From Catajapyx aquilonaris (Eukaryota): 64,000 bases of DNA. The DNA lies in contig JYFJ02001014.1 in assembly GCA_000934665.2 (NCBI GenBank), positions 1 through 64,000 of the forward strand. The letters are read 5' to 3'. The notes beneath the pieces are model-generated. The model had not been told where the DNA came from, searched no databases, and saw nothing but the letters and a program-made list of their open reading frames with translations. Below, piece after piece: positions 18,040 to 60,581 of this stretch. Position 1 is the first letter of the stretch; the number at the start of each line of letters is the position of its first letter. The position numbers and the translations under genes are program-made.

Positions 18040-18293
18040 GTTCCTCTCTAATAATATGATGGAACATACAAAAAAATTTCCTCCAAATCACTGCTGTATC
18101 GATCACACTATTCTACATCACCGTAAGCTATCGACCACACTATTTCAAATCGACTAATGGCTACCAAACAGCATAGCGGCTATTTCAACAACGGACATTT
18201 TTTTTTCCAACATGGCGGACGTTTGTCCTTCTTAAACGTTCTTAAAATTCAGGTTAAAATTAGTTCCAGCCCGTTAGTTCCAGGTCGGAGGTC
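18040..18293. promoter_or_regulatory. Probable bidirectional promoter between NBAS and the THAP gene
   Basis: ATGs are 254 bp apart. DRE-like TATCGA motifs near 18097 and 18129; YY1-like AACATGGCGG near 18209. Confidence 0.6.
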
Positions 18294-40555: not shown

Positions 40556-42560
40556 TTAAAAGGCTTGGACGGCACTGTAGATTGCCACAAAAAGAAGGAA
40601 CCCTCCGATATAAATGTAACGCAAGAAGCGATCTGCAGACTGGGCATAGTACTTAGCGTACGCAGCAATGCCTGATGGCTTATTTTCATCCAGCTGGAAA
40701 TAAAGAGGAATATGTTATTGCCATTGAATATGGTGAAGTAAGTGAAAGGTTTGTTTCTGATCTGGATGGATAACTTACAGGTAGCTCATCCAAAACACCA
40801 AGGCGATGAACAATCACAGTTGCCAAGAGTGGTATCCAGTTGAATGTCAGGCACACAGCAGTCCATGTGTCAATTGCCTGAAATTAATACCGTTGAAAAT
40901 GTAGAGAGTGTTACAGGCTACATTTGCATAGGCTTGAATATTGCGCTTAAAGTACTTACAGTTGAGTAACGAGTGTGTGGCAAATGGCTCTTTGCAACCA
41001 GGAAAACAATGAAGTTGCAAACCATCATCAGTGACGCCAAGCGGAGTCGGACTCCAATTTCTGATAATTAAATGCACAGTATAGTATGAAACACTGAATA
41101 TCACCAAATAGCACTTATTATGGTAGCTGATATTTCAAAACCTACCTTTTGTGTCAATGAAGAAGATAATGTAGGCAATCAGGGTGAACACAGCAGTGGG
41201 AATGAACAGTGTTGTAAGGTAGTAGCCACAGTTTCTCTTATACTTGAACGTGAATTTTAGACGTCCATACTCTTTGCCTGCAAAAAAATTGTGTCATTGT
41301 TACTCTACAGTCTACAAACAATAGATTTGAGAGCTATATACTCTCTTGTATACTCTCTTGTATAGTAATTATCCTACCTGCCACATGTTCATATTCAGTT
41401 TCATATTCAGTGTCCAGAAGTGTCAGCTCTGCTGAAGAGCCCTCCACCAGATCTCCAGAGTATGAAGGCTTATTCTCCCAGTTAATCACACAATCCTTCA
41501 GAGTCATAGAATCTATAAATCACAACAAAAGAAGCATTTAGCCATCATGAACTGACTTTCAGAACATCCACCAACTTACATGATTCCATCATGATGGGAC
41601 ACTCTGGTTTGTCAAAAGGAAAGTTCTTGTATTCGGTTAAGCACGCAAAACGAATCTGCAACTTCTGACTGTAGAGGACTGTCCCGTCCTTGTCTATCCT
41701 GAGGAAAGAGCTTGGTCCTCCTGCTTGGGTGACCTGAATGGCGTTGACAAAGAACATGTCCGCAACCCATATGCGCTTGGGGCCATCCGGAAGTGCGACA
41801 CTGTCAGTAAGTTTTGTGACTTTCGAGGTCAAACGGTAGTCCTTCCAGTGCTGCCTCATGTACAAGTCGGCGGTCACTTGCTATAGAAAAAAGGGGTAGC
41901 AGGGCGTGGACGAAGGCTGCATGAATTAATCAATTCGGGACTAATAAATAATTGATCTGCCTGCAACGAGACCGATTTAAATGCGACCTACCATAGTTAG
42001 TGGGTCGAAGTCGTGCATCGAGAGTACGTACATCGAGACGTTTACAGACACTGGTTTACCTCCTGCGGGACAAATTGGTAATTAGAGGGGGGAAACATGA
42101 CCTGGAATTAGCAGCTGTGTACCTACCTTGATTAGGGAAAATCAGCGGGTTGTAATCCTTTGGAATGATGTCATCGAACCATGATTCAATTGCAAGGGAA
42201 TTTCTGCAACACAAAATATATGTATACTTATAGTCGCTATACATGGAGGTCGAATATTTATCATTTAAATATTATTGGCATTAAGATATTTTCAAGCAGG
42301 CCTATATTATCGGGTGGAAGAATAAATTTTATTAATAATATCTCGTTACGTAAGCATGTACTTTCCTGCCTAAGACTTCGATAGACCGGTCTCAGACTCT
42401 CACTCTGTGATTTTAAAATAGGAATAAAGGCATGCTGCGATGTACTCGTATTATTCCTCTCTCGAATAACCATAGTGTGAAACCCACCAATGCAATGAAA
42501 AAATGTGACTTACCCGACTGTGAAGACCAGAAGGACGAGGAGATATGAGTGAGCTGCCAT
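40556..42560 (-). CDS. Divergent Cys-loop ligand-gated ion channel subunit 1 (GABA-A/glycine-receptor-like scaffold)
   Basis: 9 exons. Signal peptide MAAHSYLLVLLVFTVG; WFDDIIPKDYNPLIFP; ADLYMRQHWKDYRL; IWVADMFFVN; GTVLYSQK; Cys-loop CLTEYKNFPFDKPEC (C-x13-C); M1-M4 with AIDTW and ADRFLRYIY. Confidence 0.9.
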
Positions 42561-43163
42561 GGTGACTCTCCTGAGGTGTTGTCACGAACGGTGTCGGTCG
42601 AGTTGTGATATAATTCGTCTCACAGTAGCCTCAATAAATAGTCCCTGCAAAGCCACTTGCCAAGAGCTAATATTAGCTCTTGCACTTGCGCTTTTTTCCT
42701 TCTCTTTCTCAGTAGTGTTTGTGAAGCGTAACTCTTTCAATTGAATAGACTCGCCCTATGTAGTAATTCTGGCTTATATTGCTATTCATATATAGAGTCT
42801 GCAAGAACCCTTGATCTGGAGGTCACTTCTCGGAATCTTTAGTTTATCACTCGGAATCCGATAGGTTTATTGGGAATGACGTCGTGAACACATGCTCTCC
42901 TTTGAAAAAAATAATCAGGCCATAATATGATAGGCAAATATGTGCTCTGGATTACCTGGAATTCCTTATCATTGGAAGGTTCTACTGAAAATTAAACGTT
43001 AAGCATAAATGGCACCAATTTATTGGCTTCGTGGTCACTTGCATAAATTATTAGTTTGTTATTGATGGTGATTGAATTCGAAATCCTGGACCATTTGGAA
43101 ATTGGCAGAAATATATTTACATTTTGTCGAGTGTTACATCAGCAATTTACTGCAATTTCAAAA

Positions 43164-43720
43164 TCATCCCAAATAAGTAGCGAAGAACACGATAACGAAC
43201 AAAATGAACGCAACGGGATAGAGTAGATACGACACCATGTCAGCCTTTTCGGAGATTTTTCCCAAAATTGAGCGGATGCTGCTGCTCTTGTCCCATGGGC
43301 GTAGCCAGGCATGGGCAGGGGGTGGGGCTGCCCCCCCCCCCAATCTTAGGGAAATGCAGAAAATTTCTGGAGATTTCAGAAAAACTGAAGGTTTTGAAGA
43401 TTTTTCTGAGCCTTCGGGGTCAAAATAAAGTAATCTAAAACAATTGTTGCTGAGACAGTTCCTTCCGAATCTTGCTAGGCAGTCAGACGGAGGATGAGGA
43501 CAGGTGGGGCCCTCCTGCCCCCTAACTAAAATCCTGGCTACGCCCATGTCTTGTCCTGAAATTGAATGACACATTTGAATGAGAAACGTGCCCATTTTGA
43601 TCAGCCAGATCTGTCTCACCTCTTCAGCTCCACTGCTTTTCATGCAGACAACAAAGAGACTCTCGCAAACCGCTCCGAAAATAAAGCAGAAACAAAATCC
43701 CGACCAAATGTCCAGAGCCT
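43164..43720 (-). pseudogene. Truncated duplicate of the last two exons (M3-M4) of LGIC subunit 3, disrupted by a MITE
   Basis: Matches 47559-47852 (ALDIWSGFCF...; KADMVSYLLYPVAF...). Upstream exons are absent and the last exon carries an insertion. Confidence 0.88.
43294..43548. mobile_element. hAT-type MITE with 16-bp TIRs and 8-bp target-site duplication
   Basis: TCTTGTCC|CATGGGCGTAGCCAGG ... CCTGGCTACGCCCATG|TCTTGTCC. The empty site is visible in the paralog at ~47680. Confidence 0.92.
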
Positions 43721-44310
43721 TTAAATACTGCCCCCTGCGTTTGACTCTAAATAACTTCCAGGAAAATGGTAAAAAAAAGTTACACATCGTTAGAAAGCTT
43801 GTTTAAATGTATGCAACATATATGCGAGTTGTTTACCCATCTTCACTGTGTAATTTTTTATCGCACGAAGTACACGGAAAGGTGTCATTTTTTGACTAGT
43901 GGCCGATGTTACGCAGCAAAATTAATTTTTTAATAGACACTTCTCAGAAGCCAAAAAATTCCCACTCTGACCCTTGGATAGTGCAAGTCTTTGTCTATCT
44001 AATGATACATTTCAAACTTAGAAATCGCAATTTGTGTACCGTAATCATAATTAAGTTAATTGTACTACCCAGTGTTCGCAGGGGGAATTCTTTGGCCTCC
44101 GAGAAGTGTCATAAAAAAATTCATTTTGCAGCGTAATGCCGGCAACTAGCAAAAAAATTACGCCTTTCCGTGTTCTTCTTGCGATAAAAAATTACACAGT
44201 GAAGATAGGTAAACAACTCGCATCATATATGTTGTGAAAACAAGCTTTCTAACTATGTATAATTCCTGGGAGCTATTGAGAGTCAAACACAGGGGCCAAT
44301 ATTTAAAAAA
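43721..44310. mobile_element. Element with long (~170-bp) imperfect inverted repeats
   Basis: CCCCTGCGTTTGACTCT...GTTAGAAAGCTTGTTT...TGCGAGTTGTTTACC.ATCTTCACTGTGTAATTTT...CACGGAAAGG (43730-43890) recurs inverted at ~44150-44310. Confidence 0.7.
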
Positions 44311-44787
44311 TGGATAGTAGCCTACAGAGTGAAGGTCAGGATGGGTCACATTTCGTGAAAGAAGGTGGCAGAAATTACAAGAAGGGGTTGGGCAGGCAAT
44401 ACATAATGTCTCTCAAATTGAATATACACAAACATTTGTTTGATGCACAAAATCTAGGTATTATCACTTTTATTCTCAGAATGCTTTGCTTTTCACCATC
44501 TCCATCCTATCCTTAATTCCACAACTAGGTTATCTCACATGGTAAGAAGGCTGCAACAATTATACACCCATAAAAAATAGTGGGTGAGAAGTTGAGTCAG
44601 TGTGTTATGTAATAATTTTTGGGAGGGTGATAAAAAGTCTGCAAATACAACACTGAGAAAATTATTTGATGGCCCTAAATTACTTTAACTGCATCAAAGA
44701 TCCCAAGTAATTGCAGAAACATTGACCTCCATTAATAAACATGACTGCTTTTTAGGAACTGCTTAATTTTCCAGCGATATTGCATGA

Positions 44788-44878
44788 TGACGTAGAGGAA
44801 GTTGCGCCTCTACTCAACACCATTTGCGAGCTGCTGTGGTTGAGGGAACAAGAACTGATGATTTCCAGGCAGAGATGA
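44788..44878 (+). pseudogene. Duplicated 3' fragment of the CPLANE2 last exon
   Basis: Copy of 40336-40426 (EEVAPLLNTICE.LWLREQELMISRQR*) with no upstream exons. Confidence 0.85.
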
Positions 44879-45007
44879 AGACCACAAGTGCTTTTATCTA
44901 CTTGTTTATTGTAAAGTTGGCAGTTAATTGAAATACATATTTTACATTTTCCCAATACACTTGTCATCGCCACAACTAGTCTCACGGCAGTGATGATGGA
45001 CAGCTTT

Positions 45008-46971
45008 TTAAAAGGCTTGGACGGCACTGTAGATTGCCACAAAAAGAAGGAACCCTCCGATATAAACGTAACGCAGGAAGCGATCTGCAGACTGGGCATA
45101 GTACTTAGCGTACGCAGCAATTCCTGATGGCTTCTTTTCATCCAGCTGGAAATAAAGAGGAACATGTTATTGCCATTGAATATGGTGAAGTAAGTGAAAG
45201 GTTTGTTTCTGATCTGGATGGATAACTTACAGGTAGCTCATCCAAAACACCAAGGCGATGAACAATCACAGTTGCCAAGAGTGGTATCCAGTTGAATGTC
45301 AGGCACACAGCAGTCCATGTGTCAATTGCCTGAAATTAATGCCGTTGATAATGTATAGAGAGTGTTACATACAGGCTACATTTGCATAGCCTGGAAGATT
45401 GCGTTTAAAGTACTTACAGTTGAGTAACGAGTGTGTGGCAAATGGCTCTTTGCAACCAAGAAAACAATGAAGTTGCAAACCATCATCAGTGACGCCAAGC
45501 GGAGTCGGACTCCAATTTCTGATAATTAAATGCACAGTATAGTATGAAACACTGAATATCACCAAATAGCACTTATTAGAGTAGGTGATATTTCAAAACC
45601 CACCTTTCGTGTCAATGAAGAAGGTGATGTAGGCAATCAGGGTGAACACAGCAGTGGGAATGAACAGAGTTGTAAGGTAGTAGCCACAGTTTCTCTTATA
45701 CATGAACGTGAATATTAGACGTCCATACTCTTTGTCTGGAAAAAAATGTGTCATTGTTACTCTATACAGTCTACAAGCAATAGATTTGAGAGCTCTATAC
45801 TCTCTTGTATAGTAATTATCCTACCTGCCACAGGGATCTTGGTTGTTTCATATTCAGTGTCCAGAAGTGTCAGCTCTGCTGAAGAGCCCTCCACCAGATC
45901 TCCAGAGTATGAAGGCTTATTCTCCCAGTTAATCACACAATCCTTCAGAGTCATAGAATCTATAAATCACAACAAAAGAAGCATTTAGCGATCATGAACT
46001 GACTTTAAAAGCATCCACCAACTTACATGATTCCATCTCGATCGGACATTCTGGTTTGTCAAAAGGAAAGTTCTTGTATTCGGTTAAGCACGCAAAACGA
46101 ATCTGCAACTTCTGACTGTAGAGGACTGTCCCGTCCTTGTTTATCCTGAGGAAAGAGCTGGGTCCTCCTGCTTGGGTGACCTGAATGGCGTTGACAAAGA
46201 ACATGTCCGGAACCCATATGCGCTTGTGGCCATCCGGAAGTGCGACACTGTCAGTAAGTTTTGTGACTTCCGAGGTCAAACGGTAGTCCTTCCAGTGCTG
46301 CCTCATGTACAAGTCGGCAGTCACTTGCTATAGAAAAAAGGGGCAGCAGGGCGTGGACGAAGGCCGGATTAATTAATCAATTCGGGACAAATTGATCTGC
46401 CTGCAACGAGACCGATTTAAATGCGACCTACCATAGTTAGTGGGTCGAAGTCGTGCATCGAGAGTACGTACATCGAGACGTTTACAGACACTGGTTTACC
46501 TCCTGCGGGACAAATTGGCAATTAGAGGGGGAAAACATGACCTGGAATTAGCAGCTGTGTACCTACCTTGATTAGGGAAAATCAGCGGGTTGTAATCCTT
46601 TGGAATGATGTCATCGAACCATGATTCAATTGCAAGGGAATTTCTGCAACACAAAATATGTACTTATAGTCGCTACATGGAGGTCGAATATCATTAAAAT
46701 TGGCATTTAGATATTTTCAAGCAGGCCTTCTATACCGCGTGTAAGAATAAATTTTATTAATAATATCTCGTTACGTAAGCATGTACTTTCCTGCCTAGAC
46801 TTCGATAGACATGCCTCAGTCTTTGATTTTAAAATAGGAATAAAAGCATGCTGTGCTGCATTCCTCCCATGAATATAGCCACATAGTGTGAAACCCACCA
46901 ATGCAATGAAAAAATGTGACTTACCCGACTGTGCAGACCAGAAGGACGAAGAGATATGAGTGTGCTGCCAT
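45008..46971 (-). CDS. Divergent Cys-loop LGIC subunit 2 (recent paralog of subunit 1)
   Basis: Same 9-exon structure as 40556-42560; IWVPDMFFVN; CLTEYKNFPFDKPEC. Reading frame and splice sites appear intact. Confidence 0.9.
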
Positions 46972-47558
46972 GGTGACTCTCCTGAGGTGTTGTCACGAAC
47001 GGTGTCAGTCGAGTTGTGATATAATTCGTCTCACAGTAGCCTCAATAAATAGTCCCTGCAAAGGCACTTGCGCTTTTTTTTTTCCTTCTCTTTCTCAGTA
47101 GTGTTTGTGAAGCGTAACTCTTTCAATTGAATAGACTCGCCCTATATAGTAATTCTGGCTTTTATTGCTATTCATATAGATTATAGACTCTGCAAGAACC
47201 CTTGACCTGGAGGTCACTTCTCGGAATCTTTAGTTTATCACTCGGAATCCGATAGGTTTATTGGGAACGGCGTCGTAAACACATGCTCTCCTTTGAAAAA
47301 AATAATCAGGCCATAATATGATAGGCAAATAATTATGTGCTCTTGATTACCTGGAATTCCTTATCATTGGAAGGTTCTACTGAAAATTAAACGTTAAGCA
47401 TAAATGATACCAATTTATTGGCTTCGTGGTCACTTGCATAAATTATTAGTTTGTTATTGATGGTGATTCAATTCGGAATCCTGGACCATTTGGAAATTGG
47501 CAGAAATATATTTACATTTTGTTGAGTGTTACATCAGCAGTTTACTGCGATTTCAAAA

Positions 47559-50311
47559 TCATCCCAAATAAGTAGCGAAGAACACGATAACGAACAAAAT
47601 GAACGCAACGGGATAGAGTAGATACGACACCATGTCAGCCTTTTCGGAGATTTTCCCCAAAATTGAACGGATTCTGCTGCTCTTGTCCTGAAATTGAATG
47701 AAACATTTGAATGAGAAACGTGGCCATTTTGATCAGCCAGATCTGTCTTACCTCTTCAGCTCCGCTGCTTTTCATGCAGACAACAAAGAGACTCTCACAA
47801 ACCGCTCCGAAAATAAAGCAGAAACAAAATCCCGACCAAATGTCCAGAGCCTGTGATTAAATGGCGAATAAATCAAGCGAAAAGTGCGCAAAATAAGCGA
47901 CATGAACTGTACCGTCGGATGTGACGTGTGTGGCAAGTGATTCTTCATTTCCGACGAAAGCACAGCCGCACACAGCAAAAGCACGGAGCTCATCAAAATC
48001 CGAGGTATTGGAACTGAATCATAATAAAGCTCATTAAAAAATTCATTTCGATTACTCTTCAGTCTCATTATTTGGGACACTGACCTGACGAACTCATGAA
48101 GAATGTGAAGTACTCTAGCATGACTATGGTGGTCAAAGGCATTATGATAGCTCGGATGTAATAGCTGCTCAATCGGTTCCACAGCATTGTCAGTCCCAAA
48201 CGGCCATATTCACCTTTGTTAAATTTAAAAATGACATATCCCATAAGTTAATTTGAAATAATTGCAACAGATAAATTGACACGCACCTGTGTGGAGACTC
48301 AAAATGGTGCTGCTTTGTCGATGTCCCACAAATAAGAGTGACTTAACATACATGCCAGTTTCGGTAAATCCGACTGCATTTTCACCTCTCCATGCAATGA
48401 GTATTCGCGACGTGTTCATTCCAACTGTAAACAGCACAATTTGTTAAACGACATGTCAGAATAACAGAATTTGGTCGCTACTTACAAGATTCGAAATCCA
48501 AGTAACACTCCAAGGAATCAAACGGGAACGAGTGGTCTAACGGTTTGCACTGGAACTTCACTGTTATTCTAAAATGATATTGTGCATGAATATTAGCATA
48601 TATTATTAGCACTAATTTGTTGCATAATATAAGATACGAAATAAATACTTTTGACTGTATAATATTGTTCCCTCAGGATCTATTGAGAGAAATGATTCTC
48701 CTTCTATTTTGCTTGTAGAATATGAATTTGGTATAAACAGATCCGGGATCCAAATGTGGTCTTCCATTTTCTTAACACGTAAATTGGATTCCAGCTTTGT
48801 ATTTTGACGGGTCAACCTGGGGTCAACCCATGCCTGACGAAAGTACATGTCTGCAGTCATTTCCTATACGAAAAAAATCAAATGAGACTTTAAAATCACT
48901 TCTAGGAGTATTGTAAATGTTTCACAATAGCAGTGCAATTGCATGAAAACGTGAATTAAAGCCAAGCAGTGAAAAATATGCGGAGCGAGTTAGCACACCC
49001 ACAGCTTGCACCTACATGTTTTATGTACTATTTAAAATGTAATTTCAGAAAGCTATTGATTTGCATTGCTTTCCCTTCAAAGTTGAGTAAGAAAATAATG
49101 TACGTCTGCCATTACTTTTATCATCAGACAGCACTTTTAGAATGCTGTATAACAGAAGAAAAAGCAGGACATTTTTCAAGCAGAAATTATGGTATATTTC
49201 ACATTCCTTTGCTAAAATTACCCTCGTGCGACATTCATTCACTGAATAAATAACTAAGTCAAAATTGCACTGCTTCCTCACTTCTAACGATGGAGCAGTG
49301 AGTCTAATGAACTCAGATCTCATGTTTTATAATGTGAAAGGGCATTATAATGATAGCGTTTTAAACAAATCCCTTTGAAGTTAACTGAAAGCAATTGATT
49401 GTTCCACTGGACTTGGTAAATTTAGGCGAAAGGTATACCTGCCACGTGGTTCACATGATTATCATGAACAAAGAACAGTCACTAACAATAATTAAGTTTG
49501 GTGACGTTAGACTATATTAATTTACAGTCAGGTAAAAAAAAGATGTACAATTATACTTGCGACAAGCCGACCGGGGTTTTTAAAACGCCCTTCAATTGAA
49601 CCCAAAATTAGGTGAATGACTTCCTCTTGACCCACTAATGGGATCTGTGAACCCAGTTCGTTGGATATAGTTCTAGACATTTGGAGCACGGAAGTGGTTC
49701 ATTTTACACCCTGCTATTTGAAGCGTGCATACCATTAGCAAGCGTTGAAGAGTATGGTACCTAAAGTCTTATGAGAGACAGGTTATAGCTTGGGTTATAG
49801 CATCGGTGTAGATCAGTGCAAGCACATTGATTCTTCGGCTTTAAAGCTTGACAAATGGCCTCGCAATAGAAGCGGACTTAAGTGGTTTATGAATGAGCTT
49901 CTCTTGGAATACAGGCTGCACCTTTCAAAGAAGCAATTACCGGTCTACTCCATGCCACTGACACGAAATTATCATAACTCACATTGCTGAACGTGCAATA
50001 TCCGTAGAAGGAAATCACGTACAAGGAGACGTCAACATGGACCGGACCTGCAGAGAGGTTGGGGCTGTATAACTATATGGCTATAAATCCAAACCACTCA
50101 TTGTCATACCTCCGTACTGATCCGGAGCCAATAGCGGATTGTAGTCTTTGGGTATAATAGTTTCAAACCAATCTCTCTCAGCAGCGACTCTGTCAGATTA
50201 AAAATTAAGTAAGTGGAGAAAAAAAACCTCTGCATGGAACCGGAAAGTATAAGGAAAGGTTGGTCTCTACCTGGCGACTAGAATGCAGAGGAGCAATTTG
50301 GTGGCAGCCAT
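47559..50311 (-). CDS. Divergent Cys-loop LGIC subunit 3
   Basis: Exons from 50311 (MAATKLLLCILVAR), ~50190-50110 (DWFETIIPKDYNPLLAP), ~50047-49984, ~48863-48648 (ADMYFRQAWVDPRL...IWIPDLF...GTILYSQK), ~48568-48486 (CKPLDHSFPFDSLEC), then loop C, M1, M2 (PIPRILMSSVLLLCAAVLSSEMKNHLP), ALDIW and M4 to the stop at 47559. Confidence 0.88.
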
Positions 50312-52155
50312 GTTGCAGAAGAACTAAACTGGCCCCACTCTCGGCGAGTATGTGAGAGACTGGCCTTCATCCAACTTAACTGGTCACCCACCACAATGGG
50401 TCCCCTTGAAAATGTCCCACTTGGGATTTGGCTACGTCCTTGATGACAGCTTGTTTTCATATCACACATTATATCCTATACATGGTGTGGATAAAGTTTG
50501 TGACAACCAGCTGATGGCGTGCGACGGTGACGTAACCTAGTTCTGGCCGTGTTTGAGTTTTGCATTGGGCTTGGGTGTCCACGAGTTTTGGCACCGCCTG
50601 GCACTGCGGAGATGCAAATTGCAGCTCCAATAGCAGAACCATGCAGGAGTAGAAAGCCCGTTTTCATAAAATGAGGAGGGCCTAATCAACCTATACCTCA
50701 CGTGAAAATGAGAGAAAATTGCTTCGTAAAATTATCATTCTGTGGTTAATTTTGCATCTGATTTTACTAATATTTGCTCTTTAGCGAATACCTATAGCTC
50801 TGAAAACCGCTTGAATATGACCAAATGCAACAATAAGAATCGCATTAGCCTTGGTCTTAATTGCTGGAAACGACAATCAAACCAGGAACGAGCTATTGAG
50901 TGACGCACTCTACCGTTATTTAACGCATGATTTACATAAGCTTGGTTCTGTCTGTGGCTTAGTTGCGATATATTGCAGATAGATTTGCATGCAGCACAAG
51001 TCTTCAAATGAAAATATGCCGAGCAGATTAATATAATACTTTTGGAAAATAAAAGGCATGAAACATACCCTGCAGTGTGGTCTGTCAAAAATTCAGCGAA
51101 ACGCCTTTGCAATCAACTGGATTAGACAGTATTTTCGGTTCCATTATTGCATAGGATTTTAAGTAACTTGAATTTTGCTGCATGAAATGAATTGATTTAT
51201 TCCGGAAAGTGGTCAATGACTACGCTGTAAAAAGGGACCATTGCAGTAATATTGATAAACCATCTTAAAAAAAAGTGTCCCTTATTCCTTCCAGGCAAAA
51301 AGGAGAGGCCTATTCTCTTATATGTTACATTATGGGACATACTGTTTCCAGCAAGTGCTAAGAGAGTTTATTAATATTCAAACGTCGATGCCAAGAATGC
51401 TCTAATTTTATCGGACACCCTGTACACCCTTTTAATGAATAGGGGCGTTGTGTTTGAATGCGAGATATAGGCGGCAGTCTCCAAATTACTGGCGCGAGGA
51501 CCGCCGATTATGTAAAGCTGCGCGAGGGGGAGTGTTAAAATGTGTTGATTGACCACGTCTTTCATCAGGAAGGGTTGAATATGTTTAGAAGACGCTTCAT
51601 TGGGCGAATTAAGGGACACGCAATGGACAAGATTAAAAACGACCTCGTCTTGAAAAGGAAGTCGAGAGATGCCACTGCGAAGGAACCACAGTCGCATATT
51701 ATTGCGACACCATCAGGCTTCCGATATACTCATTCTCAACAATGTGACCTTCACGGATGACTACAATATTATTGACGGTCAAGCCTTGTTACCAACCCGA
51801 TCTTATCAAATGGCGTCCTCGTCGTATTTCTAGAACTATATACATTATGCGGCATGCAAACAAGCTGCTGGGCTCCGTTTCGGGTCAGGTGAATCCCGAA
51901 GTCCCAACATTTGCGTATAAAGGGGCTGCTTAATTTGGGTCGAAAGGTCAAAACGTCACGTCCAGGAGGCTATTCGTCCTGGGGGTAAATCACCACTTTA
52001 TGATAAACCCCTTCGTTATCTGGTAGGAAAAGGCCGAAAGGGCTCTCCCGTTTCGACGTCCCGTCGGCATCAATCTCATGATCAAAGTCTCTCAGTTCCT
52101 TCTCATCTCGTTACCTACGGAGAACTAAGAAGCCTTAGCTGCTCATTTCCGCAAA

Positions 52156-54813
52156 ATGAAGACCTTTGTCCGACTTTTTCTCGCCACGTTGCTGCTTGGA
52201 TGCTGCTGGTAAATGACTCTTGTTTTGAACTCTTGTGACGCGACAAATTAATTTTATGAAGGGGATCAAAGAAGCAACCTTTACTTTGTGAAGGAAGAGA
52301 ATATTTTGCGCTTTCACCAGGTTGATTTTTAATCTCTTAAAATATTACGAGCAGTTTTTTTTGTCACACATGTATATTCCGTCTTTCTGGCAAAAAGGTT
52401 GCCAATTATGTCGCAATATTTCCAATCATCTGTCTTGGCCGAGTCCCCAAATGGCATGAAAAGATACATCCATTAAATTTTAACAAGTACAAAGCACAAA
52501 AATGTTGTCAGAATTGTACAAAATTATTACAGTATAATTATTGGACAAAATTGTAGTACACCTACAAACACATGAAATCACTTCTGCAACAGATAAATAA
52601 CATGACATTCAGTGGCCACATTCCATAGTGTTTCTTCTTCATACTCGATATATTTTTATTTTAAAAGGGCCAGAAATAATGACCTTCCCCAAGGACTCAT
52701 TCCGGATGATTACAACAAGAACGCTATGCCTGTTGACAAATCAGGTAAGCACAATAAAATAAAATAAACATTACAACCAAAACATTGCAAGATGATGGTG
52801 CCCATAATATTATCTCGTAATTAATGTAGCACATATAAGGAGTTAATTAACTCTAAGTGTTCATTTCACTGATTCGTTGTATACGCAGGGATGGTCCAGG
52901 TGAAAGTGTCTGCCACGATTCTGGCAGTCAGAGATTTCGATCCTGCTTCCTTGGTGAGTGAACCCGATGCATTTGCAGGAGCTCTTTTCGACAGGCAATT
53001 GAATTAAAAGGTCCGGACTGTCTTCTCTCTCCTCTTCTTCTTTTTTTGTGGCACCTATAGGAAGTAACTGCCGACTTGCAGATGAGCGAGAGCTGGTTGG
53101 ATTCTCGTCTGAATGCAAGCAATGTCACAATTACCAGCGGGCAACATGCGGTCTGGACCCCTGACTTGCGCTTCCCTAATGCAATTAAGCTTTATTACCC
53201 TGGAGATCATTACGACCAAATCATGATCGGAATTAATGGATCTATCACCTTTGATCAAAAGTAAGGAGAGGGCTATATATTTTGCAGCTTACGCTTTGAA
53301 ATATTTTGAGTGTTTTCCGGTATAATTTAAGTGGTTTGTAACTCAATATTCTCACTGTGGTTGCACTTTTCCCTATCGATTTTTTGTTTCATATTTGCAT
53401 CGAATTTGCCTCAACTTCTGACGACTCGATTAGGTTTTTTCAAAAAAAAAATATATGCGTAGTACAGTGTGAACTTTATTTTTTGTCACTTTTTGAGATA
53501 AGATCTGCACTGAAAATATTTTAGAGTGTATACTTTTTGATGTACTAATTCCATTTGTTTGCTGTGTCAGGGTCTTGGTACGAGTCCCTTGCAAAACTTA
53601 CCTGACGCGCTTTCCTTACGATGAACCTCACTGTAACATTACAGTGGAGCCGTGTAAGTAAATGGCCACATTTGTCAACAGCAATGAAAAAATTATTATT
53701 ATTATTATTCGCCTAAACAATTGTGCGTATTTTCTATTTTGTTTTATAGCTGTGTACAGGAGTGACAGGGTGAATTTGACTTGGGAGAAGCCAGTGACAA
53801 TGGCAGAAGACATTCGCTCACAAGCAGCCCCAGACATGATCTTGAAATCTGTTAATGGATCCGGTGTCAACGGCAGTAAGTTCAGCGTCAGTTACTGTAC
53901 ACGCATTCCCTCGTAACATACGCAATTGCTTCATCCAACAGATGTGACAAAGAGCAGATTGGTGATTACGATGGACTTTTCTCGTGCTTATGGATTCTAC
54001 GTACAAACTGTATTTCTACCAGTGGCCATCTTCACTCTCATTGCGTGTTTGTCATTCTTGCTCGATTCGCAAGGTAAATACCATATGTCATAGTCTGTCT
54101 GCCGTTTTATAGGCTGTTGAACTTTCACTCCTGATAAAGAGATAAACTCTTCTGATCATGTGAGTTACGACCTTGACTTGTCCGTCGGTTCATGCTGCTA
54201 ATTTGATTCGAGCTAATCATCAGCTACACTTAAGATTATCTCTTTTTCATCCGCAGAACCGATGCCTCGAATTCTTCTGATCACCATGATGATGATGTGT
54301 TTGATCAATATTTCTCAGAAGGTTCGGGTCGACCTCCCCAAAGCCTCATACTGCACGGTAATATAGCTTCTGATTGCAACACCCACCCATAAAAACCTAG
54401 ACATCTATTGACCTTTAACTCACTGTGACAGTGAGGTTGCTTCCAATGACAGTCGGCCGTAAGAATGAAACACAATCATGTCATTCCTTCCAGGGATTAG
54501 ACGTATGGACTGGCGCATGCTTCACCTTCATGACCATTGCTATGATTGAGACCGTTCTGGTCAAGAAATTTGGCGGAAGTTCAGGTCAAAGCTCTGGCGA
54601 AGAAGGTGGTGGCGAGGAGGTAACTTCGCTTGTAATAATAATTATTCATTTTTATTATAATAATAACAATTTTGTTTCCTTTCTTAGAGTAAGTCTGGCG
54701 CACAGGGAGCCATGCAAAAAATGGCCAAATGGGGTGATCGGATTCTGATCATTGCCTATCCCATCGGCTTTGTCGTTTTCTCCGCCATTTACTGCGCTGT
54801 TTACTTGAGCTAA
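52156..54813 (+). CDS. Divergent Cys-loop LGIC subunit 4
   Basis: Exons from 52156 (MKTFVRLFLATLLLGCC), ~52669-52745 (LIPDDYNKNAMP), ~52889-52953, 53061-53260 (WLDSRL...VWTPDL...GSITFDQK), ~53571-53653 (CKTYLTRFPYDEPHC), ~53750-53875, ~53942-54072, ~54257-54357 (M2), ~54494-54619 (GLDVW), 54688-54813 (GDRILIIAYP). Confidence 0.88.
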
Positions 54814-55204
54814 ACGTCTCGTGCAACGGCCTGGAATGCGATTAAATGAAGAATACGTTCCTAGAATCCATTCACTGTTTTTTTCCAGTACGCTGCAGAT
54901 TACAGTCACAAAAAAATTTGGCAGCAATGTTGGTTACATAAAGCGAAACTGTCAGCTCCTATGATTTATTGGTGTTTAATAAAGAGTTCTGATAAATGTA
55001 TTGGTGTGAAAATAAATTGCGCAACTTTTTCGTGAAACTACTTTTTAAAAATTGCCTTCTCCTTGTATAGTCTCTGGATTATGCAGAAGTGGCGCTTCAT
55101 AGCCACCAATAACAAACTGCAATCGCATTCAATGATGTGGGTCACAGTGATTTATCTGTGTCGCCGTGTGCAGGCAGCAGCAGCAGCAGAGTAGCAACCG
55201 GAGC

Positions 55205-57872
55205 ATGGCTCAAGTTTTTCTACTTGTGTTAGGATGTTTTCTGCTTGCTGCCAAGTAAGCAACGTTTTACACTATATACTGTCCCTAAATGGTTCATTTA
55301 AACAGCACCTATATGTAACGGAACCTGTTCCGGAACCAGCTCACTATTTGGTTGCTAAGCACTCTGTTGCCCAGATGTTCTGTGCCAACAAAATTGAATG
55401 ATGTTGACTCGTTATTTTACTTGGTGTCAACATAATGGGACTATTGTTGACATGAAATGAGATGAGTTGGAATAATTACTCTGCCGATAGCAACCAAATA
55501 TATAGTGAGCTAGTTCCGGAACGGGTTCGGTTTGTGTAAATGGCACCTGCACATAGGTCATACTGGTATATATTTTTTGCAGCTTAATTTTTATGTCGGT
55601 GTGGTTACTTACAACTGCGTCTAAATGGGACGAAGGAAGTCGCAACTGTGCTGACGATCTTGAACGAGTCATTGACATACGACAGATTACAATATCATGC
55701 TTTGTTACGGATTGCTTTGAGGCGGAACCGAAGTAAGAGTTAATTATGGCATTAAAATTACCTGCAGCACTACATTCCACAATAATTGCAGCGCAACCGT
55801 TGGAGCACCTCTTGTAAGCTGGTTTGATGGGTTTATTCCTAATGAATATAACAAGTATTTATCACCTGCAGCAAATAACAGTAAGTACTATTACCAGATG
55901 CTTCATAGTAGACAATACAGTATTAATTTCATTTTAAATGTGATTTTCTCACTTGCGTTGTGTTGGTTGCAGCACCAGTGGATGCCAAAGTGTCTGCGTA
56001 CGTCCTGAGTCTGAGCGAATTCGATGAAATTAATTCCGTAATAATTATGCAACATTAAAAAACAATGCACACGAACTGCATATTATTGTGGGCACCAAGC
56101 GCAATAATGTATGGCTGATATCAGCACAACACTAACAGTTTCTTTTCTCCATTCTTTTGCAAGGCAGTTGATGTCGTGATGTACATGAGGCAGCATTGGA
56201 CGGACCATCGCTTGAACTCGAAGTTCACGAAAGCGAATGGCAGCGTGTCTTCTCGAATAGGTCACGAAATGGTGTGGATACCTGACCTGTTCGTTCAGAA
56301 TGCTGTTCTGGTCAGAAAGCCGGATGGACCCAACGCGTTCTTAAAGGTGGAACCCGATGGATCTATCACTTACAGCCAAAAGTACGTACTCATCAGTAGG
56401 CCTACTGATGAGAAAACCTGGAATTGTCCAATTGTCAAATTGCAAAAAGTATTAAACGGAACTAATAAATTCTTGTAAATGACAAGGGGGAAGAAATTTG
56501 ACTTTCCTAAACTTCTTTGGCATTGGCCACTTCATATGCAAATGAAATTTCTTTTTATCTAATTTTTGTTTTAATTTTTGGTAGTTTAATTGATGCCATG
56601 CTCTTGTATGTATACATAATACCGCATAATGTGTCTCTCTTTTCCAGAGTAAATGTGCGAGTTCCTTGCGTAACGGAATACCATCACTTTCCATTTGATA
56701 CACTACGTTGCGGAGTAGTATTTGAGTCATGTATGCGCATTTGGATCCTTTATAATCGCCTGATATACTCTGTTCATTGCTATAACTACTCTTTCAGTTG
56801 CATTAACGACTGGTGAGTTCTCGCTGTCGTGGTTGTCAAAGCCGGGTTATTCAGACCATATCGAGGAGAAAACGTTACTGCCATTGAGGCTACTTAATTT
56901 TATTCATGAGAACAGAAGCTTCATCTCTGAGGGAGGTAATTTGGTATTTCACATGTCTTTAAAAACTGAGCTGGCAGTAACCTTCCTTAATTTATTTAAC
57001 GCAGGAAGGTACGATCAGGTGTCAATGGAATTCATATTCGCCAGGGCAATTGGCAGCTACTTCAAAAGCGGTATTCTACCTGCTATTGGCTTCGTAGCAG
57101 TAGGATACGTCACTTTCTTCTTGAGTCTCAAAGGTAAGGCGACATAATTACGCATTTTTATAAAAAAACGGGCATATTAACCACAAATATTATCCAATTA
57201 AGATGTGACCTCTCGTATTGAACTTTGCTCCATGGTGATCCTGGCGAGTGCCTTAGTGTCTATCAACTTGAGATCTCAACTGCCACGGACGTCCTTCGCG
57301 GTAATCTGCATAATGTCAAGGGAGACACATTTTCCTTGTTCATAATTTAATTGCACCACATCACATTCCAACACTCAACTTTGCAGGCTATCGACATATG
57401 GTCATTAGTGACGTCAGGATTCATTTCACTCTCCATCTGGGAGAGCGCATTGGTGCATAATCTGCACGCCAACAAATCGGTAAGATATTGCTTATTCCTG
57501 TTTATTATCTCCATCAGTAAGGGTGGTCATACCTCACACGTGTACCCAGTTCATTAGCTGTACTGAACTTATATAGATTATTTCAGAAAGAAAAAAATTA
57601 ATCACACCTTGACTGATTTTTCTCAAGCTGGCAAATCATTTCAATAATTACACTTGAAATTTTCACTCTAAAGATTTAGGTTAATGGAGATTTGGGCAGT
57701 GAACCACCCTGTACATTCTGGGGAAACAAGTGCGTGCGATCTTAAATGTCATTCCCTTTCTTTATTGCCCATTTTCCAGGAAAGGCGACATGTTCCGGAT
57801 CGAATTTGTCGCGTCCTCTACCCTGTTTGTCTGGTCATCGTAGGCGCTGTCTTGTACGGAGTGTATACGTAG
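55205..57872 (+). CDS. Divergent Cys-loop LGIC subunit 5
   Basis: MAQVFLLVLGCFLLAA; SWFDGFIPNEYNKYLSP; MYMRQHWTDHRL; VWIPDLFVQN; GSITYSQK; CVTEYHHFPFDTLRC; M2 TSRIELCSMVILASALVSINLRSQLP; AIDIW; PDRICRVLYP; stop at 57872. Confidence 0.88.
55317..55532. repeat. Imperfect ~45-bp inverted repeat (MITE-like) in LGIC5 intron 1
   Basis: AACGGAACCTGTTCCGGAACCAGCTCACTATTTGGTTGCTA vs TAGCAACCAAATATATAGTGAGCTAGTTCCGGAACGGGTTCGGTT. Confidence 0.7.
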
Positions 57873-58913
57873 GACACAGCCTCAATTATTAGCGGCGGAC
57901 GAACACATGGCCTGCTTCCTAGGCAGGAGTCTCTCCCATCGATACATTTCATCATGCCGAATCAACATAGGTTCCTTTTGTAATTGGCCCATTAGGCGAT
58001 TCATTCAGCTCATCAAGTTATTACCATATTCATGGGGGAGGCTCCATCAGGAGTGGGCATACTTTCATAAACTTTTTGTGCGCGTGTATTGGGAAGCCAC
58101 CGCCATATGTTATTCAGCAATTTGAAGCAGGCATGTTAACTGTACGAATTATGGCAATAAAGGTACACCCTGAAATAACAGGAGAGAAAAATATTTTTTT
58201 TAGTGAGGTCTTCTGGACTGCATGTAACTGCACACATGTTTTCAGAAGATAGTGTTGCTCTAGTTGAAGGCTCTTACTTATTGATATAACATTGGAATTC
58301 CTGCTGGTCATACAATCCAAATACAGCTACTGTATATCGACGTTTCCCTACACTTGCTGCTAAGTACCGTATTTATTTTATCAATATAACATGCATGGAT
58401 GCCAATAATGTTACCACTCAGCAGAATTTCCAAACATTTAATTTGAGCCAAGTATAAGACTGCTGTATTTTTTTACATACTGTACCAAAACATAAAATGA
58501 ACTGCAGATTTTCAATCTAGAACTTTGCATAAATGTATTTCAAGGATGTGACATCATAATATCACAGTAATCTAATTATTTTCTTGCACCTTGAACCAAC
58601 TTATATGAAGCCTGTCAAGCAAGAGGACCTCCCACTTTATCAGATGTTCATTGTGGACAGCACTGAACACTCCCACCGCAACCCTCCTCTTCCTCCAGTG
58701 ACAGGGTCGTCAACTCCCTAATCGAAGAGGCACAGCCCAGCTTCCCAAATATCGTTGGTGATTGCAGTGATGAGCATGAAGGCCATGGGCGGGCCAAATG
58801 AACATAAAGAAATTGGCGTGTTGTCTTTGTCTCATACACAGTTGGGCTGCAGCCAAACTTTGGGACGTTAGCAACCACACTCCACGCTCTGGAGGAAAAG
58901 GGTGTGGTCCACC

Positions 58914-60581
58914 ATGGAAATGGCCAAGTGCTTCCTGGCTGGGATACTCCTGCTGTCATCCGGGTGAGATGGTGGATACAGCAATAATGGTGCCACGTTG
59001 CATACTTTTGTGTATAATTTCTCAGGGTGCATACTGCGGAGAATTTTTGGTACGATGCTTTCATTCCTGCCACGTACAATCCACTGAGAAGTCCTGCTTT
59101 TGGAGGTAAGTTGTGCATCACTAGTATAATGATGAGATGAAGTGAGCAAGTTCTCGCTATTATTTGCAGGGTCAGTCCAAGTGGGCATAGTTGTGTGGAT
59201 CCTCTCATTTCATGACTTTGACATTGACAGTGCGGTAAGGCATAGTTTGCTACATGTGATCCGAGTCATTCTAAAATCTAATTTCACTGCAGCAATTAAG
59301 TGCAGACCTGTACTTGGGTCAGTACTGGAATGAACCTAGACTGACTTCAGATAAGACAAGGGTTGCAGGGCAGTTGATACTACCCCATGGTGAGAAGTAC
59401 CTGTGGATACCCGACACATTCATCCCAGAAGCTGTTCAATCCAAGAAATCTGATGGACCCAATTCCCTCGTGAGGATTGACCCTGATGGGACTGTGTTTT
59501 ACAGTCAGAAGTGAGTCAATACATGAAACATTGCGTCAGTCTGTTGTCATTATAATTTGTATTACATTGCAGGCTCCAGGTTCGAATTTTGTGTGACATT
59601 TCATATGTCAAGTTTCCATTCGATGAAGTCTGCTGCACAATGCCATTTGAATCCTGTAAGTGTAACGTATCAGCAGTGGTCTTGTCTTACTCAAATAACT
59701 TAAACATTTCAGTCTCAATGAATACCTCTCGGTTACACTACTATTGGAGGGAAGTTGGAGGTAATCTCACCAAAGCTGAAGATGTACGGCCAGACATGCG
59801 GCTGATAAGGACAGAACAAGCAGCCCACAATGTCTACATGGCTGCAGGTAAGTGTACTTTTCAATGTCAAATGCTGCAATTACAGCCTGCTCGATTTTCA
59901 GATGAGTACAGTAGGTTGGAGCTGATATTATTCCTGAGACGATCACCAACATACTACGTTCACTCACTGATGCTTCCGCTTGGTGCATTTGTAGCACTAA
60001 CCTATTGCACTTTCTTCATGAGCATCAAGTCCCCCACACCAAGACTCCTCTTGAATTCCGCAATGCTTCTGTCAGCTCTTTACGTCACAATGGAGATGAA
60101 AAATCACCTGCCGCACACTCCTTCTTGGACGGTACGAGTTATGAAAAAATAATGTGGATAATCCATCTCAAATTTGCAATGATATTTTTAGGGCATGGAC
60201 ACATGGACTGCCGCATCCTTTATCTTCATGATGACAGCAATGGCTGAAACCATTCTGGTCATATGTGGAAATGAACCTGACATGTCCGAGGTAGTAATGT
60301 GCACTAAAACACTAGAAACCCATGCACCATTTGCTCGCATACATTGCACACATTTTGAGTATCCTGGAGCGAATGAGGCTTAGAAGTTCAGCAATTTTTT
60401 TACAATTTTCAATTCAGTTCAGCAATTTACTTATAATAATGCTTTATTACAGGAGAAGCCTGGAAAAGTCAAGTCCTTCATACAGAAGAATGCCGGAAGG
60501 GCAGACAGAGTATTTCGTATCGGGTACCCAATCTCCTATGCCCTGTTCATCATCATATACTGCGGAGCTTACCTTGGTTAA
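58914..60581 (+). CDS. Divergent Cys-loop LGIC subunit 6
   Basis: MEMAKCFLAGILLLSSG; FWYDAFIPATYNPLRSP; ADLYLGQYWNEPRL; LWIPDTFIPE; GTVFYSQK; CDISYVKFPFDEVCC; M2 TPRLLLNSAMLLSALYVTMEMKNHLP; GMDTW; ADRVFRIGYP; stop at 60581. Confidence 0.88.

Follow-up and report, generated by a model that had tools for sequence, protein, structure and literature searches.

Insect RDL and the vertebrate GABA-A receptor subunits (beta, pi and alpha) are among the closest described counterparts of the genes reported here and give the best sequence and structure matches (honeybee RDL 9she; beta3 4cof/7a5v) of P0014, the nearest public relative of these genes. The M3-M4 loop of RDL and GABA-A subunits is long; the solved constructs are mostly truncated. 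These receptors share with the cluster family the fold, a C-x13-C Cys-loop with FPxD, WxPD, a loop B with E-S-aromatic, Arg at 0', LP after M2 and the lack of a loop C disulfide. However, the identity of P0014 to these structures is just 20-24%, and the cluster family differs from them by the missing canonical PAR, the absence of Thr at 6', the change of SW..FW to Y..FF in M1, the deletion of the loop A His, the loss of the Cys-loop Gln and the reduced M3-M4 link. Outside the anionic branch, the cephalopod chemotactile receptors are an expanded, divergent Cys-loop family that arose from the cationic nicotinic branch and was co-opted for contact chemosensation; the earlier sequence-only reading had offered them as an analogy. 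The cluster genes, in contrast to these nicotinic descendants, belong to the anionic branch.

Insect Group 1 (secCl/CG7589, CG6927 and pHCl-2/CG11340; CLGC1-3 in Tribolium) resembles the cluster, when compared by description, in consisting of very divergent arthropod subunits of the anionic branch. This group has been described as arthropod-restricted and variable in copy number, with non-neuronal roles in the Malpighian tubule, gut and ovary (PMC4938653, PMC2064938, PMC6522505). It was reported that secCl is a protein of 510 aa whose M3-M4 loop is sizeable (PMC6522505), in contrast to 351-366 aa in the cluster. In ticks and other arachnids, the "divergent histamine 1-3" and divergent GluCl clades have been described as long-branch, tandem, lineage-restricted expansions of anionic Cys-loop receptors; these clades, which are likewise compared with the cluster by description, adjoin and group with HisCl genes and are reported as mostly synganglion-enriched (PMC9219234). 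The prokaryotic pLGICs (GLIC, ELIC) and engineered loop-deleted GlyR/GABA-A receptors have a short M3-M4 turn as in the cluster, and the pLGIC core is given as about 320 residues, near the size of the cluster proteins (PMC4795631). Unlike GLIC and ELIC, the cluster is of the metazoan type, with signal peptides, a Cys-loop disulfide and intron-rich genes. Arthropods, nematodes and molluscs all offer well-documented cases of divergent tandem expansion in this superfamily, so the cluster does not represent a novel type of system.

Organization and duplication of the gene cluster

The window, the whole 64,000-nucleotide stretch of Catajapyx aquilonaris DNA that was analysed, contains six complete gene models between 40556 and 60581, three on each strand. 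Every selected intron is GT-AG, and no internal stop occurs in the translation of any model, which bears out the sequence-only reading of six intact genes over this span. The models and associated features are as follows.

42560-40556, minus strand: g1, 9 exons, 366 aa, intact ORF, from splice enumeration and DNA reading; exons 42560-42514, 42203-42127, 42062-41992, 41880-41580, 41512-41378, 41277-41146, 41060-40960, 40877-40779, 40693-40556 (including the stop); exon 2 acceptor ambiguous (42203 or 42236)
43167-43721, minus strand: g3 relic between g1 and g2, only the last two coding exons of g3 (M3, M4), found by tblastn
46971-45008, minus strand: g2, 9 exons, 366 aa, recent duplicate of g1; exons 46971-46925, 46643-46567, 46502-46432, 46327-46027, 45959-45825, 45735-45604, 45518-45418, 45329-45231, 45145-45008
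50311-47559, minus strand: g3, 10 exons, 359 aa, intron 3 of 1119 nt; exons 50311-50271, 50189-50110, 50047-49983, 48863-48649, 48568-48486, 48424-48287, 48213-48085, 48013-47913, 47850-47752, 47687-47559
50312-52155: intergenic spacer of 1.8 kb between the divergent genes g3 and g4, placed from the gene models; possibly a shared promoter region
52156-54813, plus strand: g4, 10 exons, 362 aa, most derived copy; exons 52156-52208, 52668-52744, 52889-52953, 53061-53260, 53571-53653, 53750-53875, 53942-54073, 54257-54357, 54494-54619, 54688-54813; exon 2 acceptor ambiguous (52668 or 52629)
55205-57872, plus strand: g5, 10 exons, 351 aa, shortest M3-M4 link; exons 55205-55254 (located by a scan for ATG plus a hydrophobic stretch), 55792-55880, 55973-56037, 56164-56381, 56648-56730, 56798-56935, 57005-57133, 57203-57300, 57387-57479, 57780-57872; exon 2 acceptor ambiguous (55792 or 55768)
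58914-60581, plus strand: g6, 9 exons, 362 aa, M1 and M2 in a single exon; exons 58914-58963, 59026-59105, 59170-59234, 59293-59510, 59573-59655, 59713-59847, 59902-60131, 60192-60290, 60453-60581; last-exon acceptor ambiguous (60453, 60423 or 60486)

The common exon layout noticed earlier was recovered in all six models: intron phases 2,1,0,(2),1,1,(1),0,0 are kept throughout, with the fourth intron absent from g1/g2 and the seventh from g6. This layout is probably ancestral to the whole anionic branch rather than a hallmark of the cluster. Introns range from 54 to 1119 nt, and two stop-free, in-frame introns are concealed in long ORFs (g5, 56936-57004; g6, 59656-59712). Searching the whole window with the six proteins by tblastn returned no additional copy beyond the six genes and the g3 relic. 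The cluster is flanked by a Rab/Roc-like GTPase exon and a PEX11 gene.

Pairwise identity among the paralogs is 26.0-37.3%, except for g1/g2 at 95.4%, in agreement with the strong divergence outside this pair that had been proposed from the sequence. A direct repeat of about 4.4 kb (40336 to about 43727 versus 44788 to about 47859) gave rise to the g1/g2 pair and to the copy of the two 3' exons of g3; this relic is 97-98% identical to g3 residues 284-317 and 318-359 (tblastn), and the intron between its two exons holds about 260 nt extra. The g1/g2 introns have diverged by 5.6%, near the dS of 0.054 (5.4%), and with a dN of 0.026 the resulting dN/dS of 0.49 shows merely mild constraint on this young pair. 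Five of the 17 residue changes between g1 and g2 fall within residues 205-211, in the loop C region.

Superfamily membership and subfamily placement

Each of the six proteins has a hydrophobic N-terminus (signal peptide), a single Cys-loop (C-x13-C with (F/Y)PxD inside) and four TM segments, exactly the architecture first read from the sequence. The ligand-binding beta-sandwich domain PF02931 matched all seven receptor exon pieces tested, six of them above the cut-off of 26 bits; on single exons, E values were 6.9e-20 for g1 exon 4 and 3.6e-11 for g3, and g4 exon 4 reached merely 17.9 bits. PF02932 gave no match on the g6 M1-M2 exon. The superfamily-invariant residues are retained (W, RL, WxPD, G, both Cys of the Cys-loop, FPxD, ES, the M1 Pro, 0' Arg and LP after M2), with g4 deviating at several conserved columns of the ligand-binding domain, and the alignment to P0014 delimits all four TM helices, among them M1 with its Pro, M2 and a C-terminal M4. 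The loop B motif E-S-(Y/F) and most residues of the binding-site scaffold are kept in five of the six copies; loop C is highly variable among them. A second disulfide in loop C is a feature of the GlyR/GluCl/HisCl subgroup, and GABA-type subunits are without this Cys pair. No such disulfide was found in the six models or P0014, in which 0 or 1 Cys lies between the Cys-loop and M1.

A PDB search with a g1 exon returned GABA-A or GlyR chains in all 60 rows listed. The profile search covered 1.84 billion proteins and gave 3688 hits, the best 150 of which were analysed; among these, P0014 (365 aa) was the only full-length relative. Its alignments with g1/g2 span 360 aa at 36-37% identity (E 1e-86 to 1e-89), compared with 24-31% for the next best hits. 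P0014 scores 91.5 bits for PF02931 and 22.9 bits for PF02932, the latter under the cut-off of 28.1. Its AF2 model (pLDDT 90.1) contains helices at 229-252, 258-282, 291-322 and 327-364 with an M3-M4 turn of 4 residues, and Foldseek placed honeybee RDL as the best match (E 1e-29, TM about 0.8). By closeness to P0014, the solved structures rank as RDL, then GABA-A, then GluCl (113.6 bits for RDL versus 95.6 for GluCl). The assignment to the GABA-A/Gly/GluCl branch, first made from motifs, was thus upheld by the exon-wise Pfam and PDB searches and by the fold model of P0014. P0014 comes from contigs of about 1.2 kb that contain its entire ORF without introns and are probably transcript-like.

In trees built without named Insect Group 1, pHCl, HisCl, CG12344 or CG8916 sequences, the window genes and P0014 formed one clade with a support of 91 in FastTree (64 rows) and an SH-aLRT of 100 on a stem of 1.07 in IQ-TREE (PMSF model, 49 rows, g2 left out). 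The longest terminal branch in the IQ-TREE run was that of g4 (1.81), and the backbone was poorly supported in both runs. P0014 was nested within the window-gene clade in the free tree, and a tree holding the window genes together was not rejected (AU p 0.27); a lineage-specific expansion, as proposed in the sequence-only reading, is one candidate interpretation. Lys at YSxK combined with a residue other than Gln at D-x-Q-x-C was found in 9 of 158 proteins examined (146 with a canonical loop), namely the six window genes, P0014, P0151 and P0131. No 1:1 ortholog with ordinary branch length appeared among the best 150 of the 3688 hits. The distinct subfamily suggested earlier is supported by this long-stemmed clade with its own substitutions, the named arthropod clades being compared by description only. 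The sequence comparisons support the view that the six genes and P0014 make up a separate, very divergent and apparently undescribed subfamily, putatively independent of the named arthropod clades.

Pore lining and the M3-M4 link

The P-A-R motif before M2 has been described as a mark of anion channels (PMC2064938). The exact motif is present in none of the six copies, which have P-x-P-R (g3, g4 and g6), G-V-R (g1/g2) or T-S-R (g5). Arg is found at 0' in all six and Glu at -1' in none, because of which the pore is more likely to be anion-permeable than cation-selective. Position 6' is L/V/M/M/A, with Thr in no copy. The g1/g2 pair carries Arg at 2' and Val at 9', g5 has Glu at 2', and g4 has Met at 9'. 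This pore lining is odd for a functional anion channel and counts against the explanation that we favour. M2 is also unusually hydrophobic in the cluster proteins. The lack of Thr at 6' and the unusual 2' residues would predict a different pharmacology, in a class of arthropod ligand-gated chloride channels that is a major insecticide/acaricide target and to which the cluster adds a distinct branch.

In a visual count on the alignment that starts where the M3 core ends and runs to the D(R/M) preceding M4, the M3-M4 link has 14 (g5) to 35 (g4) residues. The compactness claimed in the sequence-only reading therefore stands. Mapped on the fold model of P0014, the link consists of two extended helices and a turn of 0-4 residues, and the turn motif E-x-K-(P/S) is common to five of the six window genes and P0014. 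Two features of the classical synaptic subunits (RDL, GluCl, HisCl, GABA-A and GlyR) are absent: the long M3-M4 domain, replaced here by the 14-35 residues, and the high cross-species conservation, the best identity to a public protein being 37%. If functional, the proteins would be natural animal Cys-loop channels cut to the core of about 320 residues, useful for structural work, in which the loop is usually removed, and for asking what the intracellular domain does.

Functional reading and alternatives

We consider it probable, at about 0.6, that the cluster consists of six genuine paralogs, maintained by selection, that encode minimal Cys-loop channel subunits of the anionic branch, in a separate subfamily with P0014. 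The paralogs would have arisen by tandem, partly inverted duplication. Each subunit has a signal peptide, followed by a beta-sandwich for ligand binding, with a 13-residue Cys-loop, and four TM helices; where an intracellular domain would usually lie, a short cytoplasmic hairpin joins M3 to M4. Gene structure, fold class, branch, clade and compactness are shown by the results above. We infer that five subunits, homo- or heteromeric among cluster members, assemble around a central pore that a small ligand or an ion opens from the extracellular side. Since subunits without the M3-M4 domain cannot carry the binding sites for synaptic-clustering scaffolds and kinases, action outside synapses or in non-neuronal tissue would be favoured. 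Divergence alone is no argument for a non-neuronal role, because the divergent tick clades are reported as mostly CNS-enriched (PMC9219234). The differences among the copies, with the young g1/g2 changes concentrated in loop C, suggest different ligand tuning, and six diverged paralogs with one 5%-diverged pair would allow changes in ligand binding to be probed by loop swaps.

Among the alternatives, a fast-evolving local expansion of a described arthropod clade (Insect Group 1 with secCl/CG7589, CG6927 and pHCl-2/CG11340, or pHCl, CG12344/Alka or RDL/GRD/CG8916) rather than a separate family is unlikely, although it carries appreciable weight. The absent loop C Cys pair, as in GABA-type subunits, the rank of insect RDL as nearest solved structure and the weak tree backbone are all compatible with such an offshoot. 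The subunits of Insect Group 1 have been counted among the most divergent ones and vary in copy number, with three Tribolium genes inside 10 kb (PMC4938653, PMC2064938), and the "divergent histamine" clades of ticks also occur in tandem (PMC9219234). However, none of the 30 top hits checked by name is a named member of these clades, the Cimex and Menopon proteins near the top of the hits fall outside the clade (that of Cimex being conventional, with 224 bits against GlyR), and none of the remaining 137 proteins examined that have the loop shows the characteristic substitutions. The M3-M4 loop of secCl is reported to be big enough for raising antibodies (PMC6522505), in contrast to the compact proteins here.

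A more specific reading extends the preferred one to an unnamed arthropod subfamily naturally without an intracellular domain, whose diversified binding loops would serve external or luminal chemosensors (taste, gut or gland) and not synapses, as a second independent chemosensory co-option, this time from the anionic branch; we regard it as quite doubtful.

It is highly unlikely that the copies, or a part of them, are silent or in decay, with open frames persisting through young duplications or chance. The truncated g3 relic shows that the locus generates dead copies, g4 is very derived and the g1/g2 dN/dS is just 0.49. Against decay, five lineages at 26-37% identity retain 9-10 exons, GT-AG sites, intron phases and superfamily-invariant residues, as expected under long purifying selection, and the whole ORF of P0014 lies on contigs that appear transcript-like.

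The least probable reading, that the proteins are constitutively open leak channels or non-conducting, auxiliary subunits modifying other Cys-loop receptors, draws on secCl, described as open without ligand and acting in epithelium (PMC6522505), on the hydrophobic M2 without 6' Thr, the charged 2' residue of g1/g2 and g5 and the variable loop C, but the loop B motif and binding-site scaffold kept in five of six copies are expected if ligand binding persists.

The receptor gene cluster and its recent duplicate

Judged from their sequences, the six Cys-loop receptor genes of the window (g1 to g6) are supported as a distinct, very divergent and compact subfamily of anionic Cys-loop receptors that appears to be functional, with the named arthropod clades compared by description only. 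The six genes noticed in the sequence-only reading were confirmed as complete, stop-free models, three on each strand. The cluster and its immediate surroundings are as follows.

Features of the receptor cluster and its flanks
39685-40426, + strand: Roc/Rab-like small GTPase gene (exon matched), flanking the cluster
40556-60581: six multi-exon receptor genes, g1, g2 and g3 on the - strand and g4, g5 and g6 on the + strand
43167-43721, - strand: g3 relic (M3 and M4 exons), 97-98% identical to g3 residues 284-359
50312-52155: 1.8 kb spacer from which the two gene trios diverge
60943-61497, - strand: PEX11 gene, flanking the cluster

The whole array lies inside the window, since it is flanked by the GTPase and PEX11 genes, and tblastn of the six proteins against the whole window revealed no further copies beyond g1-g6 and the g3 relic. 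The models were built from a stop-to-stop ORF listing, reading of the DNA at doubtful sites, and frame-compatible GT/AG pairs ranked by a simple consensus score, so the splice junctions are predictions from sequence. The joined models encode proteins of 366, 366, 359, 362, 351 and 362 aa (g1 to g6), none with an internal stop, in 9 or 10 exons separated by introns of 54-1119 nt. Intron phases are 2,1,0,(2),1,1,(1),0,0 in all six genes, the fourth intron being absent in g1/g2 and the seventh in g6. Two introns are in frame, free of stops and concealed within long ORFs (56936-57004 in g5 and 59656-59712 in g6). The first exons (41-53 nt) all encode a hydrophobic N-terminus and end in phase 2; the protein starts with 'MA' in four of the six, with 'MK' in g4 and with 'ME' in g6. 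Acceptors are ambiguous at four places (exon 2 of g1, g4 and g5, and the last exon of g6), affecting a few residues. Two short ORFs, 'MINIRPP...' in g1 and 'MQRFFF...' in g3, were rejected as signal-peptide exons, since each overlaps exon 2 in a different frame and lies downstream of the true first exon.

Successive exon sizes of 65-71, 200-218, 83, 126-138 and 129-132 nt resemble the conserved series 68/221/83/138-144/153 of vertebrate GABA-A genes. If that series is right, the shared exon layout is ancestral to the whole anionic branch.

The window copies are 26.0-37.3% identical to one another, except for g1 and g2 (95.4%). These two lie in a direct repeat whose copies are spaced about 4.4 kb apart (40336-~43727 versus 44788-~47859), which also includes the last two coding exons of g3 and thereby accounts for the two-exon relic between g1 and g2. 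The relic, whose intron has about 260 extra bases, was brought along by the tandem duplication that made g1 from g2. Between g1 and g2, dS is 0.054, dN 0.026 and dN/dS 0.49, and intron divergence (5.6%) matches dS. The two proteins differ at 17 residues, five of them within the stretch 205-211 that aligns with loop C. This pattern speaks for mild purifying selection, with the changes clustered in the ligand-contact region, although one pair does not distinguish it from relaxed constraint.

Receptor architecture and pore

The Pfam ligand-binding domain (LBD) model PF02931 gave a match to seven of seven receptor pieces, one of which, the g4 exon, scored under the curated cut-off. With a g1 exon, 223 PDB sequences were matched at E<=0.001, and the best 60 of the 223 were all GABA-A or glycine receptor chains. 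Each of the six proteins has a single Cys-loop, in which 13 residues, including (F/Y)PxD, separate the two cysteines, and four hydrophobic segments that align to M1-M4; with 0 or 1 additional cysteine ahead of M1, there is no loop C disulfide. Compared with 38 other anionic-branch proteins, which served as the conservation reference, the window copies keep the near-invariant LBD residues, namely the loop D W and R-L, WxPD, the beta-hairpin Gly and both cysteines. FPxD, E-S, the loop B aromatic, the M1 Pro, the 0' Arg of M2, L-P after M2, the Asp that starts M3 and the D before M4 are kept as well.

The link between M3 and M4, measured on the alignment between the point where the M3 core ends and the D(R/M) that precedes M4, comprises 30, 30, 26, 35, 14 and 27 residues in g1 to g6, in agreement with the loop of about 20-35 residues estimated earlier from the DNA. 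An AlphaFold2 model was made for P0014, a 365-aa public protein that is the closest full-length relative among the profile matches compared (mean pLDDT 90.1, from a 40-row alignment). It consists of a beta-sandwich followed by M1 (229-252), M2 (258-282), M3 (291-322) and M4 (327-364), and the modeled helix ends at 322 and 327 would leave a four-residue turn to join M3 and M4. The best Foldseek matches of this model in the PDB were honeybee RDL (E 1e-29) and GABA-A, GlyR and GluCl chains, with TM of about 0.8. Mapped from the model, the turn reads E-x-K-(P/S) in five of the six window proteins; it is absent in g5, where the link is shorter still.

The pore register was anchored on the 0' Arg and checked by L-P at 22'-23'. 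P-A-R is described as the mark of anion channels in the Tribolium paper (PMC2064938). None of the six copies has the canonical P-A-R: P-x-P-R is found in g3, g4 and g6, G-V-R in g1/g2 and T-S-R in g5. The -1' Glu of cation channels is likewise absent from all six. Position 6' is occupied by L, V, M, M and A across the window lineages and by I in P0014, replacing the usual Thr, and 9' by V, L, M, L and L; at 2', g1/g2 carry Arg and g5 carries Glu. Given these pore motifs (0' Arg, no -1' Glu, no exact P-A-R), the channels are predicted to be anion-permeable, as the somewhat likelier outcome, and some subunits may conduct poorly alone.

Relatives in public databases and phylogenetic placement

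Searches outside the window used unspliced exon translations as queries. A word-index protein search with a g1 exon at 'longer' lengths returned none of 28 candidates, and the same kind of search with P0014 found no match except itself among 730 candidates. A metagenome scan with P0014 alone gave 23 pattern matches, none of which was confirmed, and scanning with an alignment (A4) led to a single locus, 20% identical, that was left unused. The productive query was a profile (A2) built from the LBD exons of g1 to g6; run against 1.84 billion representative proteins, it yielded 3688 matches at E<=0.001, of which 222 reached 1e-10 and 1 reached 1e-30.

The top scores of this profile belonged to proteins with several LBDs, three from an oribatid mite and others that were fused predictions from a nematode, hemichordate, bivalve, brachiopod and scorpion, all with partial matches. 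The mite proteins (Medioppia P0001, P0003 and P0004) and several other long proteins were rejected as relatives, because their high scores arise only from 2-5 LBD copies; these multi-LBD proteins match over at most 160 aa at 34-36% and were excluded from the trees. The three mite proteins consist of two or three consecutive receptor LBD halves, predicted without a TM region, and have a shortened C-x10-C loop without FPFD. They may represent tandem genes joined in error, or secreted forms that resemble binding proteins.

When the spliced proteins were compared with the fetched profile matches by local BLASTP, the best partner of every window gene was P0014, along with two nearly identical members of its cluster, P0151 and P0152. 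Its full-length identity is 36-37% to g1/g2, 33.5% to g5 and 26-29% to g3, g4 and g6, and the fetched matches that come after it have much weaker scores (21-34% identity). P0014 is built like the window genes, with a signal peptide, a Cys-loop and a short M3-M4 link. It was found in JGI/IMG and Logan assemblies only, on contigs of about 1.2 kb, and is probably a transcript, since the whole ORF is uninterrupted on a contig of mRNA size. The nearest ESM Atlas clusters (354 and 368 aa, mostly Arthropoda) are candidate leads only.

Names were looked up for 30 of the best 150 matches. They included a bug protein of 403 aa and a louse protein of 381 aa (neither with a named function), proteins of nematodes, an annelid, a brachiopod and hemichordates, a fish GABA-A beta2-like protein and many unnamed assembly proteins; no named member of the described arthropod orphan clades was among these 30. 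The bug protein is conventional, scoring 224 bits against glycine receptors, whereas P0014 reaches 113.6 bits against its best solved match, which shows how far the family has drifted.

Four marks are shared by all window lineages and P0014 when compared with the 38 reference proteins: Lys replaces Arg in the YSx(R) strand motif; the Gln of the Cys-loop D-x-Q-x-C, Q in 95% of the others, is lost; the loop A His, also present in 95%, is deleted; and M1 ends in Y..FF versus SW..FW. Among 158 proteins, 146 of them with a canonical loop, the pair of Lys and non-Gln is confined to g1 to g6, P0014, P0151 and P0131, so that the signature is found in only two other clusters within the best 150 of the 1.84 billion proteins. 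P0131 (333 aa, from an ENA assembly) has a long branch and adjoins the clade in the IQ-TREE tree.

A FastTree analysis (64 rows) placed g1 to g6 and P0014 in one group with support 91. An IQ-TREE quick search under a PMSF mixture model was run on 49 rows, omitting g2 as a near-duplicate, the mite and scorpion proteins, and proteins outside 320-560 aa. It recovered the group with SH-aLRT 100 on a stem of 1.07 changes per site; inside it, g3 paired with g6 (88) and g5 with P0014 (91), and the backbone around the group stayed unresolved. A tree constrained to unite the five window lineages without P0014 was 7.5 log-likelihood units worse and was not rejected (AU p 0.27), which leaves duplications before and after the split from P0014's organism both admissible. 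It had been proposed from the DNA that the cluster may be an independent, lineage-specific expansion co-opted for a non-synaptic role such as chemosensation. The distinct, very divergent and compact subfamily of the anionic branch stands, as the clade with P0014; independence from the named arthropod clades, restriction to one lineage and a non-synaptic role are kept as candidate readings.

Known systems and neighboring genes

Both the receptor kind and this mode of gene-family growth are well known, and tandem, divergent, lineage-restricted expansions of anionic Cys-loop receptors in arthropods have already been published. Three Insect Group 1 genes lie within 10 kb in Tribolium (PMC2064938, PMC4938653), Drosophila members of this group have non-neuronal roles (PMC4938653, PMC6522505), and the tick 'divergent histamine' arrays are tandem, divergent and lineage-restricted, with most of them enriched in the synganglion (PMC9219234). 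CG12344/Alka shows that a response to ions or pH is possible in channels of this kind (PMC13103399), and a pH-gated channel is also on record for a mite. The best-studied Insect Group 1 member, secCl, is described as a 510-aa protein with a loop big enough to serve as antigen (PMC6522505); in contrast, the window proteins have 351-366 aa and a short link. Alpo4 was rejected as a precedent for a missing M3-M4 domain, as its intracellular domain has about 100 residues (PMC10338036). No animal Cys-loop subfamily pared down to the core, with the M3-M4 domain missing, was found described in the literature searched, which is weak evidence of absence; the Daphnia, copepod and Collembola literature offered nothing relevant, and a search for hodor was without result.

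The rest of the window contains the following features.

Other features of the window
~8340-18087, - strand: large NBAS/Sec39 gene, its consecutive long ORFs encoding Nbas_N, Sec39 and the NBAS C-terminal domain
18492-19322, + strand: THAP-domain ORF
20500-21597, + strand: retrotransposon protease/SH3 fragment
29655-30789, + strand: second PAL-like gene, on the strand opposite to the PHM/PAL row
33036-36017, - strand: PHM exons (Cu2_monooxygen N and C domains) followed by PAL (NHL-repeat) exons on the same strand, PHM upstream

The row of PHM and PAL exons is consistent with a single bifunctional gene of the PAM type; in insects, PHM and PAL are generally described as separate genes. The best named matches of the PAL exon were from a termite (61%), then a cockroach, orthopterans, stick insects and mosquitoes, and all named matches among the 120 listed were insects. 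Four N bases are present, at 22200-22202 and 23327, the first three within a coding-like, low-complexity poly-Pro/poly-Gly run.
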